Positions 175 to 34,048 of a DNA stretch of 34,048 bases are shown piece after piece. Location of the stretch: positions 1 to 34,048 of IMG/VR virus record IMGVR_UViG_3300003523_000007; one strand, 5' to 3'. The stretch is from a virus. The notes below the pieces were generated by a model, which worked only from the letters and a program-made list of their open reading frames with translations, was not told where the DNA came from and searched no databases. The translations under genes and the position numbers were made by a program. Positions within the stretch are counted from its first letter, which is position 1; every line of letters begins with the position of its first letter.

Positions 175-1896
175 CTATTTACTACACCAAATAAAACGCG
201 CTTCAAGTCCGTTTTTGAATAGGATCGAAGAAACAAGACCGTTTTTAATTTCTATCTTTTCAATAATGGTATTTACAAAGGCTTTCAAAGTTTCATTGCC
301 TACGATCGGGGCGAAATCATTATATATTATTTCTTCGCCGGATTGGATCTTATACGACAAAAGAAATTCGCTTGCAGATTGTACGAAAGACAATTCCGAA
401 ACATCATTAAAGGCGGCTTCTTCGTCGTCGGCTATTTCATTCTTTAATCGCGTAAGATCTTCTTCAAGTTGGGATCTTGTCGTCAAATATTCCCGTTCGT
501 CCATTGCGTCGTCGTCGAATAAATACGCCTTTTTAAGTCGTTCCATTGCCCGCGCGATCTTGTCAATTTCTTTACGCTTCGCAGCAATAGACGCGCCCTT
601 TTCTTTGCTTTGCGGCAGCGGGGCGGGGATATAAGAAGAAGCGGAGCGGGAAACCCCGCGCAGGGCGTCGAAGATTTGCCGAAGTGATCCGGCGTCAAGT
701 TGTTTTATATCCTTGAACGGATCGCCACGAAGTAACCGTCTTTCGACTTCTTCAATTCCGGCGGCGCAGATCTTCCGGCGATCTTTTGAAACCGCAATAA
801 GATTTGATACAAAGTTAAACACGAACGCACCGACAACAATATCGCTTGTATTTGGAGCGTTGCACGCCCGCTTTTGCGTTCTTGTATAACAACGGTAATA
901 TGACGGCTTAAAACCGTTTAGGCGGGTTTTATCCGCGCCCACGCATTGAAAGAACGCCCCACAATCGCAGCAGACCAAAAGACCCGCGAAAACGTGCGCA
1001 TATTTCCTTTTATGGCTTAACCCGTTCAAATTACGGGCGGTATAATTCGCGGACATTTGCTTTTCTACACGGTCGAATAATTCGCCCGATACAAGCGGCG
1101 GGAACACGTCTTTAATATATACGACTTCTTCTTCCGGTTTCTTCTTCCCGCGTGCGCTATGGCGATAATTATATCTATAATCGCCGCGGTTTATAGGATT
1201 GTGCAATATATCGCCGACGGTTTTTGTCGTCCAATATCCGCCGCGCTTCGTTGGGATCGAATTATTATTCAGATAATCACGAACAACACTTGTCGAATGT
1301 GATTTGTCGTATAATTCGTACATATAACGCACGACGTCGGCTTCTTCGGGGTGGTGGATCGGTTTTTCTTCCTTTTCGTCCCACGCCCAACCGTAAGGAA
1401 CGCGCGCGCCGTTCCATTTCTTTTCTTGTGCGCGTCCGATCATAACGCCCGTTACACGTTCGCTTGTAAGTTTTCTTTCTAATTCAGCAAATACAAGGAT
1501 AATTTTTAAGACGGCTTCGCCGATCGCGCTTGACGTGTCGAATTGTTCGTTAAGAGATATAAACGTCGTCCGGTTGTCTTTGAATGTGTCGTACATCAAA
1601 GAGAAATCGACAAGGTTACGACTTATTCGGTCAATCTTATAAACAACAACCCGCGCAACGCTTCCGGCTTTAACCTTTTTCATCATTCTTTGAAACGCGG
1701 GGCGGTCGGTATTCTTTCCGGACTTTCCCGCGTCTTCGTAGATTTCTAATTCGTCCGGCGATAAATGCAGGACGTGAACACAATAATTTTTTAATTCTTT
1801 CTTTTGAAATGGTAAAGAGTCTTTATCTATTTGATAACCCGTTGAAACACGGACATATAAAGCCGTGATCCGGTTATCGCTTCCCGCCTTTTTCAT
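175..1896 (-). CDS. int: Large serine recombinase (phage integrase)
   Basis: 573-aa ORF. The N-terminal resolvase-type catalytic domain includes ALYVRVSTGYQ and VVVYKIDRISRN. It is followed by a recombinase domain, a Cys-rich zinc-ribbon-like segment (LLVCCDCG...YYRCY...C) and a C-terminal coiled coil. Confidence 0.9.
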   Translation of the reverse strand: MKKAGSDNRITALYVRVSTGYQIDKDSLPFQKKELKNYCVHVLHLSPDELEIYEDAGKSGKNTDRPAFQRMMKKVKAGSVARVVVYKIDRISRNLVDFSLMYDTFKDNRTTFISLNEQFDTSSAIGEAVLKIILVFAELERKLTSERVTGVMIGRAQEKKWNGARVPYGWAWDEKEEKPIHHPEEADVVRYMYELYDKSHSTSVVRDYLNNNSIPTKRGGYWTTKTVGDILHNPINRGDYRYNYRHSARGKKKPEEEVVYIKDVFPPLVSGELFDRVEKQMSANYTARNLNGLSHKRKYAHVFAGLLVCCDCGAFFQCVGADKTRLNGFKPSYYRCYTRTQKRACNAPNTSDIVVGAFVFNFVSNLIAVSKDRRKICAAGIEEVERRLLRGDPFKDIKQLDAGSLRQIFDALRGVSRSASSYIPAPLPQSKEKGASIAAKRKEIDKIARAMERLKKAYLFDDDAMDEREYLTTRSQLEEDLTRLKNEIADDEEAAFNDVSELSFVQSASEFLLSYKIQSGEEIIYNDFAPIVGNETLKAFVNTIIEKIEIKNGLVSSILFKNGLEARFIWCSK

Positions 1897-25568: not shown

Positions 25569-26651
25569 ATGAGTGAATACGCAATGTTTTATAATTCCGT
25601 AGAGGGCGACAGAGTTTACGACGCCGACGACATGACAGATTGGTTAAAACCTTTCTTTGTAACCGGAGTTTTTAACGGTCAAATGCAAGTAACCGCAAAC
25701 GACGACATGACAATCACGGTTGCGTCGGGTTATTGCAATATCGGCGGTAAAGTTAAGAACTTCCGAAACGCGCAGACTTTCGACCTTGAAACGGCAAGCG
25801 GTACATTAAACCGTATCGACAACGTAGTATTACGCAGGGACGACACAAACCGAGATATAACAATCGAAATTGTTAAAGGCGGTTACGCAGAAAATCCCGT
25901 TGCACCCGCGCTTGTTAGATCCGGCGCGTATTACGATTTGAAGTTAGCAGAAATTTATATTGCTGCCGGAACAATCGCAATTACGCAGGATAATATAACA
26001 GACACCCGCGCGAATAGTGACGTGTGCGGTTGGGTCGTTGCAACGGTAACGGAGATTGATTTTTCGCAGATTACGGCACAGTTTAACGCCTACTTTGCCC
26101 GTTACCAAGCCTTGATTACTTCACAGTACGCAACATATCTTGCGGTTATTCAGAATTTAGAAGATCAAGGAAATTCGGCGTATCAAAATATGCTTGCGGA
26201 CTTTCAGAGTTACAAGACAACGCAGGAAACACGCTTCAACGCTTTGTATGAAGAAATGCGCGATCTTATCGGAGAAGCAACCGCGGCAAACTTACAAAAT
26301 CAGATCGACGACATTGTGAACACAACCGGAGTTATGGCGGACAATTTGGCGACAAAGTTAAAGTTTACAAACGGTACAAGCGAAACACTTACCGACTTTG
26401 TGATCGTCGTAACCAATACCGACACCGGAACGGTTACAAATTATACGTTTGACGCTAACAATCCGTTGAAACTCACAGAACACGGAAGTTATACAGTTGC
26501 AGCAGCGGACGACGATTATACGATCATTCCGCATACATTCGATCTTGATTACACAAAGACAACCGAAACAATCGACTTTAATATCTACAATGACGCGGGC
26601 TATGCTTACGTCGGCGGATATGTGGGCGCGTTTGTTTCAAGCGCAAATTAA
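25569..26651 (+). CDS. Tail fibre / baseplate protein
   Basis: 360 aa in the tail-tip module, with a central coiled-coil-like region (QYATYLAVIQNLEDQGNSAYQNMLADF...). Confidence 0.45.
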   Translation: MSEYAMFYNSVEGDRVYDADDMTDWLKPFFVTGVFNGQMQVTANDDMTITVASGYCNIGGKVKNFRNAQTFDLETASGTLNRIDNVVLRRDDTNRDITIEIVKGGYAENPVAPALVRSGAYYDLKLAEIYIAAGTIAITQDNITDTRANSDVCGWVVATVTEIDFSQITAQFNAYFARYQALITSQYATYLAVIQNLEDQGNSAYQNMLADFQSYKTTQETRFNALYEEMRDLIGEATAANLQNQIDDIVNTTGVMADNLATKLKFTNGTSETLTDFVIVVTNTDTGTVTNYTFDANNPLKLTEHGSYTVAAADDDYTIIPHTFDLDYTKTTETIDFNIYNDAGYAYVGGYVGAFVSSAN

Positions 26652-26675: not shown

Positions 26676-27113
26676 ATGCGCAGATTTCCAAAGAACCTTA
26701 AAACAAGGGCAGATATTTATAATTGTCTTGATATGGTACGCGCGGGAGAACTTAAAGCGTCGGATCTTGTAAAGGCAATTCACAAAATCAAAAATCAGAA
26801 CTACATAAACGCGGTAATTTCGGACATTTCGGAAGACCGAAAGACGATCACAACGAATTATCTTTGTGAAGCGGAAGTCGATAAAACCGCAAAGGTTGGC
26901 GAACTTATGGTTACAATCGAGTCTTTAACCCACATTGAGGGAGAACCGGACGCAGAGGGCAAAACAAGTTTTGTTTCAACCGCGATCGACGTTTCCCGCG
27001 CCGTTTCCGGAAGTGCAACAATCTTTGGTCTTGTTAGAATACCGTCCGTTTACGATAGATACAACGTAACCGAAGACGAGTTAGACGAGATTTTAGCAGA
27101 GTTTGAGGGTTAA
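26676..27113 (+). CDS. Hypothetical tail-module protein
   Basis: 145-aa ORF with RBS GAAAGGGG. Confidence 0.55.
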   Translation: MRRFPKNLKTRADIYNCLDMVRAGELKASDLVKAIHKIKNQNYINAVISDISEDRKTITTNYLCEAEVDKTAKVGELMVTIESLTHIEGEPDAEGKTSFVSTAIDVSRAVSGSATIFGLVRIPSVYDRYNVTEDELDEILAEFEG

Positions 27114-27131: not shown

Positions 27132-28244
27132 ATGGCAAAGTTTTTTCTTTATGATGAGTCTATGCAGAACACCAAAGCAAAGATCACAACCGCTAAACTT
27201 GCCACAATGGGCGACATTGTAGCAGGCGACAAAGCGTTTATCTATGCTTCGGGCGAAGACGCACCGGACGAATTAGTCGTTATGGGCGACGTACTTGTCG
27301 CCGTTGGGTCTTCAATCTTTAAGACCACAGAAACAACACTTACCGCCGCCGATCTTGATAGTGGCGAAGCATTTACCGTTGGTACAGATTACAACGTGTT
27401 TATTTGCGATCCAACAAGCGGGGACGAAACCGTCGATACAAACGAGATCTTTAAGATTTCGGCTTCTTCGACTTATCCGTCCGGCTATACCGCTTCAAAT
27501 TCCCGTCGTATTGGTGGTTTCCATTACGGCGTCGTAAGAAAGGTTAGCGACGCGGGCATTCCGGTTAATTCCGGCGGTACAGAGTCCGGCAGCGGTTGGG
27601 AAAGTAACGTTTATAACGGTATTGTTCCTAATTCCGTATGGACGCTTTTATTCCGTCCAAAGTGTGATCCGGCGGGTATGGTTTATATTGGTAACGGTCT
27701 TTGGGGCGATATTTACTTATCGTCAGACGATAGCAACGACGGTTTGGCTTCCGCTTACGGAATAAACCCTATTACCGGAACAGAGGGGCTTAATTGGTAC
27801 ATTGCAAACGAGAAAGCCCGCCGCGTTGGGAAACGTTTACCGTCTTACGCCGAATTTTGTCAAGCAGCGTTCGGAAGTCCCGAGGGGCAGGACGGCAACA
27901 ATACTTACGCATGGAGCGCAACCGGAAATACGGGTCGTACAACTTGCGGTAACGTAACTTACGCCGTTTCAGCGGTCAACGTTCGCGACCTTGTCGGCAA
28001 CGTTTGGAAATGGGTTGACGAATTTTGTCTTGATCCGACCGCGTCTTCGTGGGCATGGCAGGACGTATTAGGAAGCGGACACGGCGACGCTTATATTCCG
28101 TCAAGTACCGCGCTTCACGCTTTCCTTTGCGGCGGGGGTTGGAACTACGGCGTCCACGGCGGCGACCGTGCCGTGCATTGCCACAATTACCCGTGGTACG
28201 TCAACACGAACTTTGGCGTTTGGTGCGTTTGTGACTCACAGTAA
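27132..28244 (+). CDS. DGR target protein: tail-fibre-like receptor-binding candidate with a C-terminal FGE-sulfatase/C-type-lectin-fold domain carrying the VR
   Basis: 370 aa. ...NWYIANEKARRVGKRLPSYAEFCQAAFG...VGNVWKWVDEF... resembles the FGE/CLec fold used by DGR targets. The last ~42 codons are the VR. Confidence 0.85.
   Translation: MAKFFLYDESMQNTKAKITTAKLATMGDIVAGDKAFIYASGEDAPDELVVMGDVLVAVGSSIFKTTETTLTAADLDSGEAFTVGTDYNVFICDPTSGDETVDTNEIFKISASSTYPSGYTASNSRRIGGFHYGVVRKVSDAGIPVNSGGTESGSGWESNVYNGIVPNSVWTLLFRPKCDPAGMVYIGNGLWGDIYLSSDDSNDGLASAYGINPITGTEGLNWYIANEKARRVGKRLPSYAEFCQAAFGSPEGQDGNNTYAWSATGNTGRTTCGNVTYAVSAVNVRDLVGNVWKWVDEFCLDPTASSWAWQDVLGSGHGDAYIPSSTALHAFLCGGGWNYGVHGGDRAVHCHNYPWYVNTNFGVWCVCDSQ
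28109..28236 (+). repeat. DGR variable repeat (VR)
   Basis: It aligns with 28799-28926 at a constant offset of 690. There are 9 mismatches, all at TR adenines. Confidence 0.9.
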
Positions 28245-28251
28245 GCAGAAA

Positions 28252-28274
28252 GGCGGCGGCGAAAGCCGACCGCC
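28252..28274 (+). other. GC-rich hairpin with a GAAA loop just downstream of the VR (candidate DGR target-recognition element, or a transcript-end hairpin)
   Basis: GGCGGCGGC-GAAA-GCCG-A-CCGCC forms 9 bp with one bulged A. It starts 16 nt after the end of VR/TR homology. Confidence 0.5.
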
Positions 28275-28310
28275 TATAACTAAAAGATCAAGGAAAGGCA
28301 AGGCGGCGTA

Positions 28311-28739
28311 ATGCAAAATGCGAAAGAGTACGAAGCAAAATACAATGTGCCGCAAGTCGTGATTGATACAAAAGCCGATTACGTTCATACAAAAGCACAT
28401 CAAGCGGCGTATGATTTTAGCGTATATCTTCACGAAAAAATGAAGAAGTTACCGCATTACGAAAAGTTTACGTTACAAAAAGAGATCCGCGAAGCGATCG
28501 ACGTTATTATGGACGAAATCGAACAATACGAAATCACGAAAGTTATTTCGCACTTGTACGCAGCAGATCGGCAAAAGCGGCGGTTAATGCGTAAATTGCG
28601 ACTTGCGTATGATCTTAAATATTCGGCGATAAACGACGACGTTTTATTTTATTGTGCGTCCCAAACCGCTATAATCGGGGCGTTAATCGGCGGACTTATC
28701 GCAGAAGCAAAAGAGAGAAAGACGGCGGCGGGCAAATAA
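28311..28739 (+). CDS. avd: Avd-like accessory variability determinant (four-helix-bundle protein)
   Basis: 142-aa basic helical protein, in the canonical position between the target gene and the TR. Confidence 0.7.
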   Translation: MQNAKEYEAKYNVPQVVIDTKADYVHTKAHQAAYDFSVYLHEKMKKLPHYEKFTLQKEIREAIDVIMDEIEQYEITKVISHLYAADRQKRRLMRKLRLAYDLKYSAINDDVLFYCASQTAIIGALIGGLIAEAKERKTAAGK

Positions 28740-28756
28740 CCCGCCCCGTTTATTTT
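28727..28756 (+). terminator. Weak terminator-like hairpin at the avd stop
   Basis: GGCGGG (28727-28732) pairs with CCCGCC (28740-28745), followed by CCGTTTATTTT. Confidence 0.35.
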
Positions 28757-28798
28757 GGGGCAACTGTTATTACCGTATCGTTGGGGGTTGCATTTCCG

Positions 28799-28926
28799 CG
28801 CGCTTCACGCTTTCATTTGCGGCGGGAATTGGAACAACGGCGTCCACGACGGCGACCGTGCCGTGAATTGCAACAATTACCCGTGGAACGTCAACACGAA
28901 CATTGGCGTTTGGTGCGTTTGTGACT
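28799..28926 (+). repeat. DGR template repeat (TR)
   Basis: Non-coding copy of the VR. In the VR frame it is rich in AAY codons: ...AFICGGNWNNGVHDGDRAVNCNNYPWNVNTNIGVWCVCD. Confidence 0.9.
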
Positions 28927-29140
28927 TGTGAATTTTAGACGGCGGCTTCTCCGGAAACGTCGCAAGGGCTTTTAATGTAAAGTCGTTTACATTGAGTCAG
29001 ACGGTTGTAAAGAGCGTTTAACGCTTCCCGTTCCTTTACCGGACAAAGATTAAAGAGAACCGATCGAGAAGTAACCCGTATTGCTAACGGCGCAGGGCGA
29101 AACGCGACACGGTCAAATTTTTATAAAGTGAATAGAGAAC
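28927..29140 (+). ncRNA. TR-RT spacer, probably part of the DGR template RNA
   Basis: A 214-nt non-coding gap with no ORF and local hairpins (ATGTAAA-gtcg-TTTACAT at about 28975-28992; AGCGTT/AACGCT at about 29013-29025). Confidence 0.4.
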
Positions 29141-30202
29141 ATGAAAACAGAAAAACACCTTTTAGACGTGATTTGTACGGAACAAAACGCCGTTAAAGCG
29201 TATAAAAAGGCGCGAAAGTGTAAACGATACCGTCCCGAAGTGTTAAAGTTTGAAACGGATCGCGAATTGAATTTATTACAAGCGATTATTGATATTCAAA
29301 ACGGAACTTATCACGCGGGGCGGTATTATTGTTTTAAGGTATTCGAGCCAAAAGAACGGCTTATTATGGCGTTACCATTTTACGATCGCGTAATACAACA
29401 CATGATCGTAAATATTATTGAACCGATCTTTGAAAAACGCTTTATATTTCATTCTTACGCTTGCAGGAAGAAAAAGGGCGTACACGAAGCAAGTACGACG
29501 CTTTCAACGTGGCTTTATAATATGCAAGTCGTACAAGGTAAAAAGATCTACGCGATCAAAGCGGATATACACCATTATTTCCAAAGCATAGACCACGAAG
29601 AATTAAAAAGAGAGATCCGGCGTTATATATCAGATAAAGATGTTTTACGGATATTAGACCATATTATCGACCATAACGGCATATATCCCGACGGGGTCGG
29701 TATTCCGGTCGGAAACCTTACGTCGCAATTATTCGCGAACGTTTATTTGAATATATTAGATCATTACATAAAGCATACTTTACACGTCCGGTATTATATT
29801 CGATACATGGACGATTTTATTATTTTGGGCGAAGATCCGGAAGAATTGCGGGCATTATTGCAGCAGATCGAAAAGTTTATCAATGAACGGTTAAAACTAT
29901 CACTAAACCCAAAGACAACGATCCTTGCAGCAAAGAACGGTATAGACTTCGTAGGTTATCGACACTTTGCAACCTTTAAGATCATGAGAAAAGAAGCGAC
30001 GCGCCGTTTACGAAAGTTAATACACGCATTTGAAACCGGAGAAGTTGACGAAGAATTATTCGACCGATCAATCGAAAGCAGGATCGGACACGCGCGACAC
30101 GCCGACACGTTCCAATTTTGCGCGGATCTTCGAGAAGAAATAAAAGAAATAAAGATAATAACAAACGACCGTTTTAATTGCGTAATATGTAATTACAAAT
30201 AG
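29141..30202 (+). CDS. rt: DGR-type reverse transcriptase
   Basis: RT motifs LIMALPFYDRVIQH and YAIKADIHHYFQSIDH, the DGR-typical GIPVGNLTSQLFANVYL, and the catalytic YIRYMDDFIILG. Confidence 0.9.
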   Translation: MKTEKHLLDVICTEQNAVKAYKKARKCKRYRPEVLKFETDRELNLLQAIIDIQNGTYHAGRYYCFKVFEPKERLIMALPFYDRVIQHMIVNIIEPIFEKRFIFHSYACRKKKGVHEASTTLSTWLYNMQVVQGKKIYAIKADIHHYFQSIDHEELKREIRRYISDKDVLRILDHIIDHNGIYPDGVGIPVGNLTSQLFANVYLNILDHYIKHTLHVRYYIRYMDDFIILGEDPEELRALLQQIEKFINERLKLSLNPKTTILAAKNGIDFVGYRHFATFKIMRKEATRRLRKLIHAFETGEVDEELFDRSIESRIGHARHADTFQFCADLREEIKEIKIITNDRFNCVICNYK

Positions 30203-33853: not shown

Positions 33854-34048
33854 AAGATCTATCGAAAGTTGAAGCAAGGCAGCAGGCGGCAGCAGATCCG
33901 GCAGCGGGGCAGCAGGAGAAACCCGCGTTTAATCAAATTGAATACATGAACCAATACAACCGGACAAATTACGATCGCGTAAACTTAACAATGCCAAAAG
34001 GCAAAAAGGCGATTGTAAAAGAACGGGCGGCAGCATTAAAGAAAAGCG
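33850..34048 (+). CDS. Ribbon-helix-helix protein, 5' part; continues across the circular junction to base 111 (86 aa in total)
   Basis: ATGA overlap with the previous stop. ...RVNLTMPKGKKAIVKERAAALKKS... continues at base 50. Confidence 0.6.
   Translation, partial: MKDLSKVEARQQAAADPAAGQQEKPAFNQIEYMNQYNRTNYDRVNLTMPKGKKAIVKERAAALKKS
34000..34048. repeat. Terminal overlap, copy 2 (identical to 1-49)
   Basis: Direct comparison of the two window ends. Confidence 0.95.

Follow-up and report, generated by a model that had tools for sequence, protein, structure and literature searches.

A BPP-1-like diversity-generating retroelement at the end of the tail module of a siphovirus genome from ruminant gut communities

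Genes of the retroelement locus

The stretch of DNA analysed here (hereafter the window) is the 34,048-nt IMG/VR virus record IMGVR_UViG_3300003523_000007, and its positions 27132 to 30202 hold what is, with high confidence, a complete diversity-generating retroelement (DGR) of the type known from phage BPP-1, carried by a ~34-kb temperate siphovirus of ruminant gut communities. Indeed, four elements follow one another on the + strand: (i) a target gene (27132-28244, 370 aa) coding for an Mtd-like tail protein with a C-terminal CLec/FGE-like domain that contains the variable repeat (VR), (ii) an avd gene, for accessory variability determinant (28311-28739, 142 aa), (iii) the template repeat (TR; 28799-28926) and (iv) a gene coding for a DGR reverse transcriptase (RT; 29141-30202, 353 aa), which is intact in the window.

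By its pairwise scores and its signature motif, the RT groups with the RTs of DGRs. It aligns with the RT of BPP-1 (bRT, 8ub7_A) over residues 3-330 with 207 bits, an E-value of 3.3e-60 and 37% identity, whereas the group II intron or 'retron-type' RTs of the PDB reach at most 71 bits, with E-values no better than 7e-19. It carries YMDD together with VGNLTSQ, the latter fitting the DGR RT signature [I/V/L]GxxxSQ, which stands in place of the QGxxxSP of other RTs (PMC7826257). The equivalents of bRT residues K29, F66, R74, I76, G182 and Q187 and the catalytic Asp are kept, and V replaces I181; the roles of these residues are taken from the literature and not from the alignment made here. The RT also matches PHROG 1423 (4e-124), and tblastn relates it to the RTs of the known DGR phages BPP-1, ANMV-1, VP585 and FP_Lagaffe and of crAss-like phages, the best GenBank phage RT in this search being less than 45% identical to that of the window.

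The homology of the target marks it as a true Mtd homologue, in which an mtd_2nd domain is followed by the C-terminal CLec domain. In particular, the protein matches the Pfam family mtd_2nd (PF21916) over residues 44-157 (100.5 bits, E 9.1e-29, cutoff 24.6), the Pfam family FGE-sulfatase (25.9 bits, E 9.6e-6, cutoff 23.3) and PHROG 11262, annotated as 'tail protein' (5e-66). Its sole relatives in the PDB are six Mtd variants of BPP-1, with E-values from 3e-18 (1yu2) to 4e-16. This alignment spans target residues 65-368 at ~30% identity, VR included, and the VR of the window falls on that of Mtd, with a common scaffold GGxW...G.R...G..CD. From the Mtd homology and the position of the gene, the target is likely the receptor-binding protein of the phage.

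The 142-aa protein is basic (pI 8.8), and profile comparisons identify it as Avd. It matches PHROG 3206, 'Avd protein of DGR' (6.2e-13), and a profile built from 24 syntenic homologues matches the Avd of BPP-1 (bAvd) over its full length (4dwl, 4.5e-9; 8ub7_B, 3.9e-8). The syntenic profile was needed for the structural match, a PDB search with the single sequence having returned noise only.

An earlier reading of this DNA, made from its letters alone (the sequence-only reading), had proposed a DGR with canonical gene order, and each of its elements is now independently supported. The three open reading frames (ORFs) of 370, 142 and 353 aa are present as it claimed, the GNLTSQ and YMDD motifs that it pointed out in the RT were both found again, and the assignment of this RT to the DGR type rather than to group II introns or retrons agrees with the 207 bits against bRT and the ceiling of 71 bits elsewhere. 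Its Avd-like protein is borne out by the PHROG and bAvd profile matches, and its FGE/C-lectin-like target C-terminus by an FGE-sulfatase score above cutoff and by the alignment of the VR with the CLec domain of Mtd. The target had also been placed after baseplate genes, and it does follow the tape measure, Dit and Gp37-like genes.

Template and variable repeats

The VR (28109-28236, + strand), delimited with a repeat finder and by direct alignment, makes up the last ~42 codons of the target gene (codons 327-368 of 370). The TR (28799-28926, + strand) is 128 nt long and holds 27 adenines in 18 variable codons, ten of which are AAY. Both methods describe the two as a 128-nt direct repeat at an offset of 690 and with 93% identity. 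Nine mismatches separate them, at TR positions 28815, 28827, 28828, 28836, 28849, 28866, 28872, 28887 and 28902; the TR has an adenine at all nine, and the VR reads C, G, G, T, G, C, C, T and T in that order. Non-adenine positions of the TR show no mismatch in the window. For nine random mismatches, with 27 adenines in 128 nt, the probability that all fall on A is 2.5e-7.

The mismatches are confined to codon positions 1 or 2 of the TR codons ATT, AAT, AAC and GAC. An adenine occurs at the third codon position in 0 of the 41 TR codons, against 19% in the rest of the target gene (P ~1.7e-4). The theoretical repertoire offered by the 18 variable codons is ~1e16 proteins, and a stop codon is unreachable. 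No further VR-like copy was found in the window, even with every TR adenine allowed to be any base. A 58-aa ORF (28755-28931) runs in frame across the TR; it is expected from a TR that mirrors a coding VR and is no evidence of a gene.

For the repeats, the direct alignment reproduces exactly what the sequence-only reading had given, namely the coordinates, the offset of 690, the nine mismatch positions with their bases and the peptides encoded by TR and VR. Its count of about 27 TR adenines is exactly 27, and its claim that the mismatches are adenine-specific stands at nine out of nine, with zero of the non-adenine mismatches that it had named as contrary evidence.

Variation in related genomes

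The DNA of related genomes was retrieved via their Avd proteins; for the target, 14 full-length members of its 90% cluster, which comprises 38 proteins, were compared. These 14 protein variants are hypervariable exactly at the TR codons AAY, ATT, GAC, CAC, TAC and ACG. Among seven near-identical genomes, the VR differs pairwise by 11.6%, the remainder of the target gene by 0.31% and the TR by 0%, which means that the VR changes ~37 times faster than its own gene and that the TR is frozen; each genome has a VR with 9-19 differences from its own TR. Over 17 TR/VR pairs, 207 of 237 mismatches lie at a TR adenine (A to G 120, A to T 51, A to C 36), and 24 of the 30 non-adenine mismatches are lineage-fixed in two sublineages. 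The positions that vary across related VRs run from 28117 to 28212. All TR adenines but two, 28846 and 28924, are substituted at the DNA level; the first of these is substituted in protein variants (H342R), and the second never varies. A frozen TR beside a churning VR is the hallmark of a DGR, and the element is probably at work in natural relatives. Polymorphism restricted to VR positions that face a TR adenine, which the earlier reading had expected, is thus seen in related genomes.

Twelve related loci have an identical TR, and only five TR variants occur among 26 loci. Between the window and a clade ~80% identical to it (L084:3489-3616), the TR is 99.2% identical (1 difference in 128 nt), as against 79-85% for the flanking parts of the DGR (P 3e-9). 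This near-identity across clades indicates either a strong constraint at the nucleotide level or a recent exchange of the TR.

Several peculiarities were observed in individual relatives. Two loci from different rumen samples, L003 (3976-4795) and L104, have an identical VR with six non-adenine mismatches to their own TR, in which AC is changed to CG at repeat positions 51-52; their RT is intact, and this sublineage looks frozen or inactive. The VR of L082 (2799-2925) has a 1-nt deletion beside an AAC site, by which its last ~13 codons are frameshifted and the target ORF is fused through to the avd start and called as 392 aa. This could be a real indel at an A site or a consensus artefact of a mixed VR population. 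Indels at A sites have been reported for other DGRs.

Apparent partial conversion tracts are present in related VRs. The VR of the window (28137-28182) shares five A-site substitutions, at repeat positions 29, 30, 38, 51 and 74, with L093, L095, L101 and L102, a clade that is only ~80% identical to the window genome-wide and whose VRs differ from that of the window in the 3' half. These common substitutions could reflect partial conversion tracts or convergence; as evidence of convergence they were set aside, being only marginal (P ~0.04, a rough hand estimate).

Disruption of the reverse transcriptase in relatives

The full-length RT is disrupted in 6 of 18 close relatives, by five distinct mutations: (i) a change of the ATG start to ACG in L083 and L086, (ii) W124 to stop in L085, (iii) E158 to stop in L087, (iv) a 1-nt deletion in L090 and (v) an 11-nt deletion in L100, both deletions being frameshifting. 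No disruption was found in 93 copies of six neighbouring genes, and if disruptions fell at random by sequence length, all of them would land in the RT with a probability of ~1e-3 by our own estimate.

The ACG-start allele occurs with two very different VRs, those of L083 and L086 (19 and 14 mismatches to the TR), and may therefore be a down-tuned allele and not a null one. The VR of L086 is in turn nearly the same as that of L085, which has the stop at W124, with one A-site difference between them. Such linkage patterns could possibly arise by recombination, by trans-complementation or from a leaky ACG start.

A tentative interpretation is that the RT is repeatedly and independently knocked out, with the target, avd, the TR and the neighbouring genes left intact, and that selection, or else a strong bias in mutation, shuts down diversification after a useful VR has arisen, as a natural 'lock-in' phase. 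This is regarded as possible rather than probable. A literature search on recurrent inactivation of DGR RTs returned nothing relevant. If true, such a lock-in would be informative on when, and by what means, hypermutation stops in nature.

Elements 3' of the variable repeat

The VR ends in a segment (28213-28236, + strand) resembling the initiation of mutagenic homing (IMH) element of other DGRs; it is undiversified and identical to TR 28903-28926, and the VR and TR sequences part immediately after these 24 nt. The sole A of the segment (28234, corresponding to TR 28924) is invariant in 18 VRs. In the L093 lineage, a TR/VR difference at repeat position 121 is absent from the transfer to the VR, and the 3' limit of information transfer therefore lies there.

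A GC-rich hairpin or cruciform (28251-28275, + strand) starts 14 nt past the VR. Its stem pairs 28251-28260 with 28265-28275 (10 bp, one bulge) around a GAAA loop (28261-28264), and its DNA fold of -14.5 kcal/mol (z -4.3) was equalled by 0 of 200 shuffles. Relatives with RTs 42-58% identical have GC-rich covarying stems of other sequence at the same place, with GAAA, GGAA, GATA, GGCA or GACA loops. In BPP-1, target recognition needs a GC stem of 7-10 bp that carries a GRNA loop of 4 nt and lies 4-34 bp past the VR (Guo 2011, PMC3240598), and by analogy the hairpin at 28251-28275 is a candidate target-recognition element. It is not a classical terminator, because no T-run follows. The first 44 nt past the TR give only a weak fold (-8.6 kcal/mol, z +0.77) and hold no comparable GC-rich GRNA hairpin.

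The DGR RNA and a putative priming site

A non-coding spacer of 214 nt (28927-29140, + strand), which would form the 3' part of the DGR RNA, separates the TR from the RT; an alignment of 11 sequences shows conserved blocks and covarying hairpins in it. Two arms of a predicted long-range RNA duplex bracket the TR. The upstream arm, UGGGGCAACUGUUA (28756-28769, + strand), is found conserved in relatives, 27-46 nt ahead of the TR, and the downstream arm (28998-29030, + strand) consists of CAGACGGUUG at 28998-29007 and CUUCCCG at 29024-29030. An A:U pair of this duplex in the L005 clade is C:G in the clade of the window, and L023 has lost one pair on both strands. The duplex resembles the 'cPRT Stop' duplex of BPP-1, which joins sequences on either side of the TR and has predicted counterparts in 207 other DGRs (bioRxiv 10.1101/2023.10.23.563531).

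The primer strand AGUCA (28995-28999, + strand) can pair with UGACU at the TR 3' end (28922-28926). The spacer block AGUCAGACGGUU at 28995-29006, which corresponds to GGUCA56GCCGGUU in BPP-1, is invariant in 11 relatives, and A28999 is the putative priming adenosine, equivalent to A56 of the BPP-1 spacer; the priming chemistry is established for BPP-1 alone (PMC6182149). The primer duplex has changed in a compensatory manner in L032 (UGAUUC:GAAUCA) and in L063 and L076 (UGACG:CGUCA), and the nucleotide 5' of the duplex is always G in relatives. In the window this nucleotide is G28921 (+ strand), the probable first templating nucleotide and equivalent of G117 of the BPP-1 TR (GUCUG117|UGCCC in BPP-1, GUUUG|UGACU here), opposite which cDNA synthesis would start. 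This placement would explain the observation that A28924, which lies 3' of the first templated base, is never mutated in any VR.

A hairpin with an AGCG-UUUAA-CGCU core (29008-29025) interrupts the long-range duplex in the clade of the window; the L005-L023 clade is without it. The avd stop codon is spanned by a pair of terminator-like hairpins with T-runs that overlap each other (28727-28761). Since the second one has a 3' arm (UGGGGC) overlapping the upstream arm of the duplex, these two structures would be mutually exclusive. RNAalifold on 11 spacers gave a weak consensus (-16.4 kcal/mol), and the local GACGG:CCGUU helix that it proposed was rejected, since it competes with the better-supported long-range duplex. 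A scan of distant relatives for contiguous primer duplexes was mostly uninformative and misses even the real, interrupted duplex of BPP-1. A scan of the whole window at the Rfam gathering threshold gave no match, hence no curated DGR RNA family.

Genome context

Positions 1-49 of the window are identical to positions 34000-34048, and from this 49-nt terminal overlap the window is a complete circular assembly of ~34.0 kb. It encodes a serine integrase (175-1896, minus strand), a methyltransferase, a replication initiator, a large terminase, a portal and a major head protein. The tail module comprises, in order, a 998-aa tape measure, Dit, a Gp37-like minor tail protein, two uncharacterised proteins and the Mtd-like target, and downstream of the target come avd, the TR, the RT, small membrane proteins and an endolysin. 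The order from tail genes through target, avd, TR and RT to lysis genes therefore places the DGR as the last part of the tail module in a temperate siphovirus. As for the two uncharacterised proteins, both encoded between the Gp37-like protein and the target, that of 360 aa (25569-26651) matches 'head/virion structural' PHROGs only and that of 145 aa (26676-27113) is without a Pfam or PHROGs family match; they may be members of a tail-tip complex that carries the Mtd-like protein.

An identical 2.8-kb contig is present in the Joint Genome Institute (JGI) metagenome 3300002597, from camel rumen; gut metagenomes of sheep and other ruminants contain related contigs. In DNA, the closest complete relatives share ~80% identity with the window, and blastn of the DGR region against GenBank phage DNA found no similarity. 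In species-representative genomes, the invariant 24-mer at the 3' end of VR and TR has one match, in a phage-sized contig of 34,013 nt binned in a metagenome-assembled genome (MAG) named 'uncultured Clostridia bacterium'. The host phylum is probably Firmicutes/Clostridia, judging from this single MAG bin and the sample types, which are weak guides to a host.

Proposed mechanism and alternative explanations

The analysis covers the anatomy of the locus, the homologies of its proteins, the adenine-specific TR/VR pattern and, in relatives, VR hypervariation restricted to adenines against an invariant TR; the priming site, the initiation site, the architecture of the ribonucleoprotein, the role of the hairpin and receptor binding are proposed by analogy with the biochemistry of BPP-1. 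By this analogy, an RNA spanning at least ~28756-29140 (upstream arm, TR and spacer) would fold with the RT and pentameric Avd into a ribonucleoprotein in which the TR is bracketed by the long-range duplex of 28756-28769 with 28998-29007 and 29024-29030. Spacer AGUCA would pair with the UGACU of the TR 3' end, the 2'-OH of A28999 would prime the cDNA, and synthesis would start opposite G28921. Copying of the TR by the RT would be faithful at all bases but the 27 adenines, at which misincorporation would occur. The cDNA would then replace the VR (28109-28236), to which it would be guided by the 3' end of the VR and by a feature that the TR lacks, the GAAA hairpin at 28251-28275. In this way, as many as 18 codons for the ligand-binding face of the C-type-lectin domain would be re-randomised, and the altered tail protein could let the phage track changes in host surface receptors.

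Several results weigh against a complete and active element of the BPP-1 type in the window. As a single sequence, the 142-aa protein scores under the curated cutoffs for Avd (2e-9 with NCBIfam DivGenRetAVD, 2.8e-7 with Pfam bAvd). The candidate for an Avd-binding stem-loop 3' of the TR (~28940-28962) is indistinct from shuffles (z +0.77), and folding of the whole RNA (28740-29140) yields a structure no more stable than those of shuffled sequences (z +0.55). A GC-rich 14-mer IMH like that of BPP-1 is missing, the IMH and its TR counterpart IMH* being identical over the last 24 nt, a situation also found in some other DGRs (Wu 2018, PMC5758913). In addition, the evidence of activity comes from related clades, the closest complete relatives sharing only ~80% of their DNA sequence with the window, and some related genomes have inactivated RTs or non-adenine TR/VR differences, the element therefore not being active in every lineage.

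A first alternative is that the DGR of the window is structurally complete but a silent relic, its nine A-site differences being the frozen record of past homing. The disruption of 6 of 18 close RT copies in related lineages is in line with such a fate, as are L003 and L104, which from different samples share an identical VR with six non-adenine mismatches and a mutated TR. In the window itself, the RT, Avd, the TR, the hairpin, the priming motif and the long-range duplex are all intact, and the absence of any non-adenine mismatch means that the repeats have not drifted apart since homing last took place; a relic is accordingly considered rather unlikely.

A second alternative concerns only the role of the diversified protein, which might not bind a host receptor and might instead bind a non-host ligand or serve as a decoration or adhesin. 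In its favour, the function was deduced from Mtd homology and gene position only, and the two uncharacterised proteins of 360 and 145 aa stand between the baseplate genes and the target. This alternative is nevertheless given a low probability. Opposed to it are the extent of the Mtd homology, which covers residues 65-368 with the mtd_2nd domain, the match to a PHROG 'tail protein' family, and the position of the target, which closes the tail module and is followed immediately by the DGR and the lysis genes.

It is highly improbable that the RT is a member of a different class (group II intron, retron, or the defence-associated and unknown-group RTs, DRT/UG) and adjoins the repeat by coincidence. 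The best NCBIfam model is indeed a group II intron RT/maturase (133 bits), the DRT models of PADLOC reach up to 94 bits, and GenBank annotates homologues as 'retron-type'. These scores lie far below the curated cutoffs (300 bits for group II), and overall the group II, retron and DRT models of NCBIfam and PADLOC score far under their cutoffs or under the generic RT model. The protein has no maturase/X or endonuclease domain, there is neither an intron RNA nor an Rfam match, VGNLTSQ is found rather than QGxxxSP, bRT scores 207 bits against 71 for group II RTs, and the synteny with avd and the TR is kept in most of 80 related IMG/VR loci fetched.

Finally, a simple recent duplication of the 3' end of the gene followed by ordinary divergence, which could in principle yield a 128-nt direct repeat at 93% identity, is refuted by the adenine-specific pattern in the window and its relatives and can be practically discounted: all nine differences lie at an A of one copy only (P 2.5e-7), 207 of 237 mismatches lie at a TR adenine in related genomes, the VR evolves ~37 times faster than its own gene beside a frozen TR, and the repeat is located between Avd and a DGR-type RT. 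A complete DGR of the BPP-1 type is thus the preferred explanation of the locus.

Comparison with known systems

The closest described model is BPP-1, and the annotated BPP-1 cassette (mtd - avd/bbp7 - TR - brt) has the same gene order and strand as the window. The target is homologous to Mtd over mtd_2nd and CLec, with a VR that makes up the last ~42 codons, the RT is homologous to bRT, and Avd is homologous by profile. The TRs, of 128 nt in the window and 134 nt in BPP-1, are both rich in AAY codons; both systems have a GAAA hairpin after the VR, and both have the priming motif GUCAGNCGGUU with G as the first templated base.

The two systems differ in several respects. Protein identity is low (37% for the RT, ~30% in the Mtd alignment). 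BPP-1 is a Bordetella phage, whereas the phage of the window has siphovirus-type tail genes (tape measure, Dit), comes from the rumen and probably has a Firmicutes/Clostridia host. The window is without the GC-rich 14-mer IMH, its IMH and IMH* being identical over 24 nt; its spacer is longer (214 against 144 nt), and its long-range duplex has an extra hairpin. Furthermore, the RT position equivalent to bRT 181 is V and not I, and Avd has 142 aa instead of 128, with a longer N-terminus.

The sequence-only reading had recognised the element class as known but set this instance down as the most unusual system of the window, a weighting that is too high: the architecture is the canonical one of BPP-1, a very common type of phage DGR, and the locus is a new example of a known system and not a new kind. 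At least 573 loci in IMG/VR encode related RTs, and most of the 80 that were fetched show the order VR - avd - TR - RT with A-biased mismatches. Wu et al. 2018 (PMC5758913) describe 'B' as the most common architecture, of which B1 is avd-TR-RT with one upstream target. In the parts of the survey of Roux et al. 2021 (PMC8144416) consulted here, rumen phage DGRs with C-lectin structural targets are catalogued at scale, and three DGR entries come from 3300002597 (camel rumen), none of those being matched to the contig of the window. The gut and rumen phage DGRs of Roux 2021 and the B1 type of Wu 2018 share with the window the architecture, a C-Lec phage structural target and the rumen biome. Faecalibacterium phage FP_Lagaffe and Clostridium phage Saumur, temperate phages of gut Firmicutes (Clostridia) that also carry DGRs, are distant, with RTs 37-43% identical to that of the window.

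In summary, the likely receptor-binding protein of this phage has been identified, knowledge of DGRs being otherwise unchanged, and the sole lead of broader bearing is that the RT seems to have been inactivated recurrently in related genomes. The locus is a cleanly documented DGR of the rumen virome, in a complete circular genome with its canonical cis and trans parts mapped and natural variants at hand, and it offers a convenient comparative partner for BPP-1, with a common RNA logic in a distant phage and host background.

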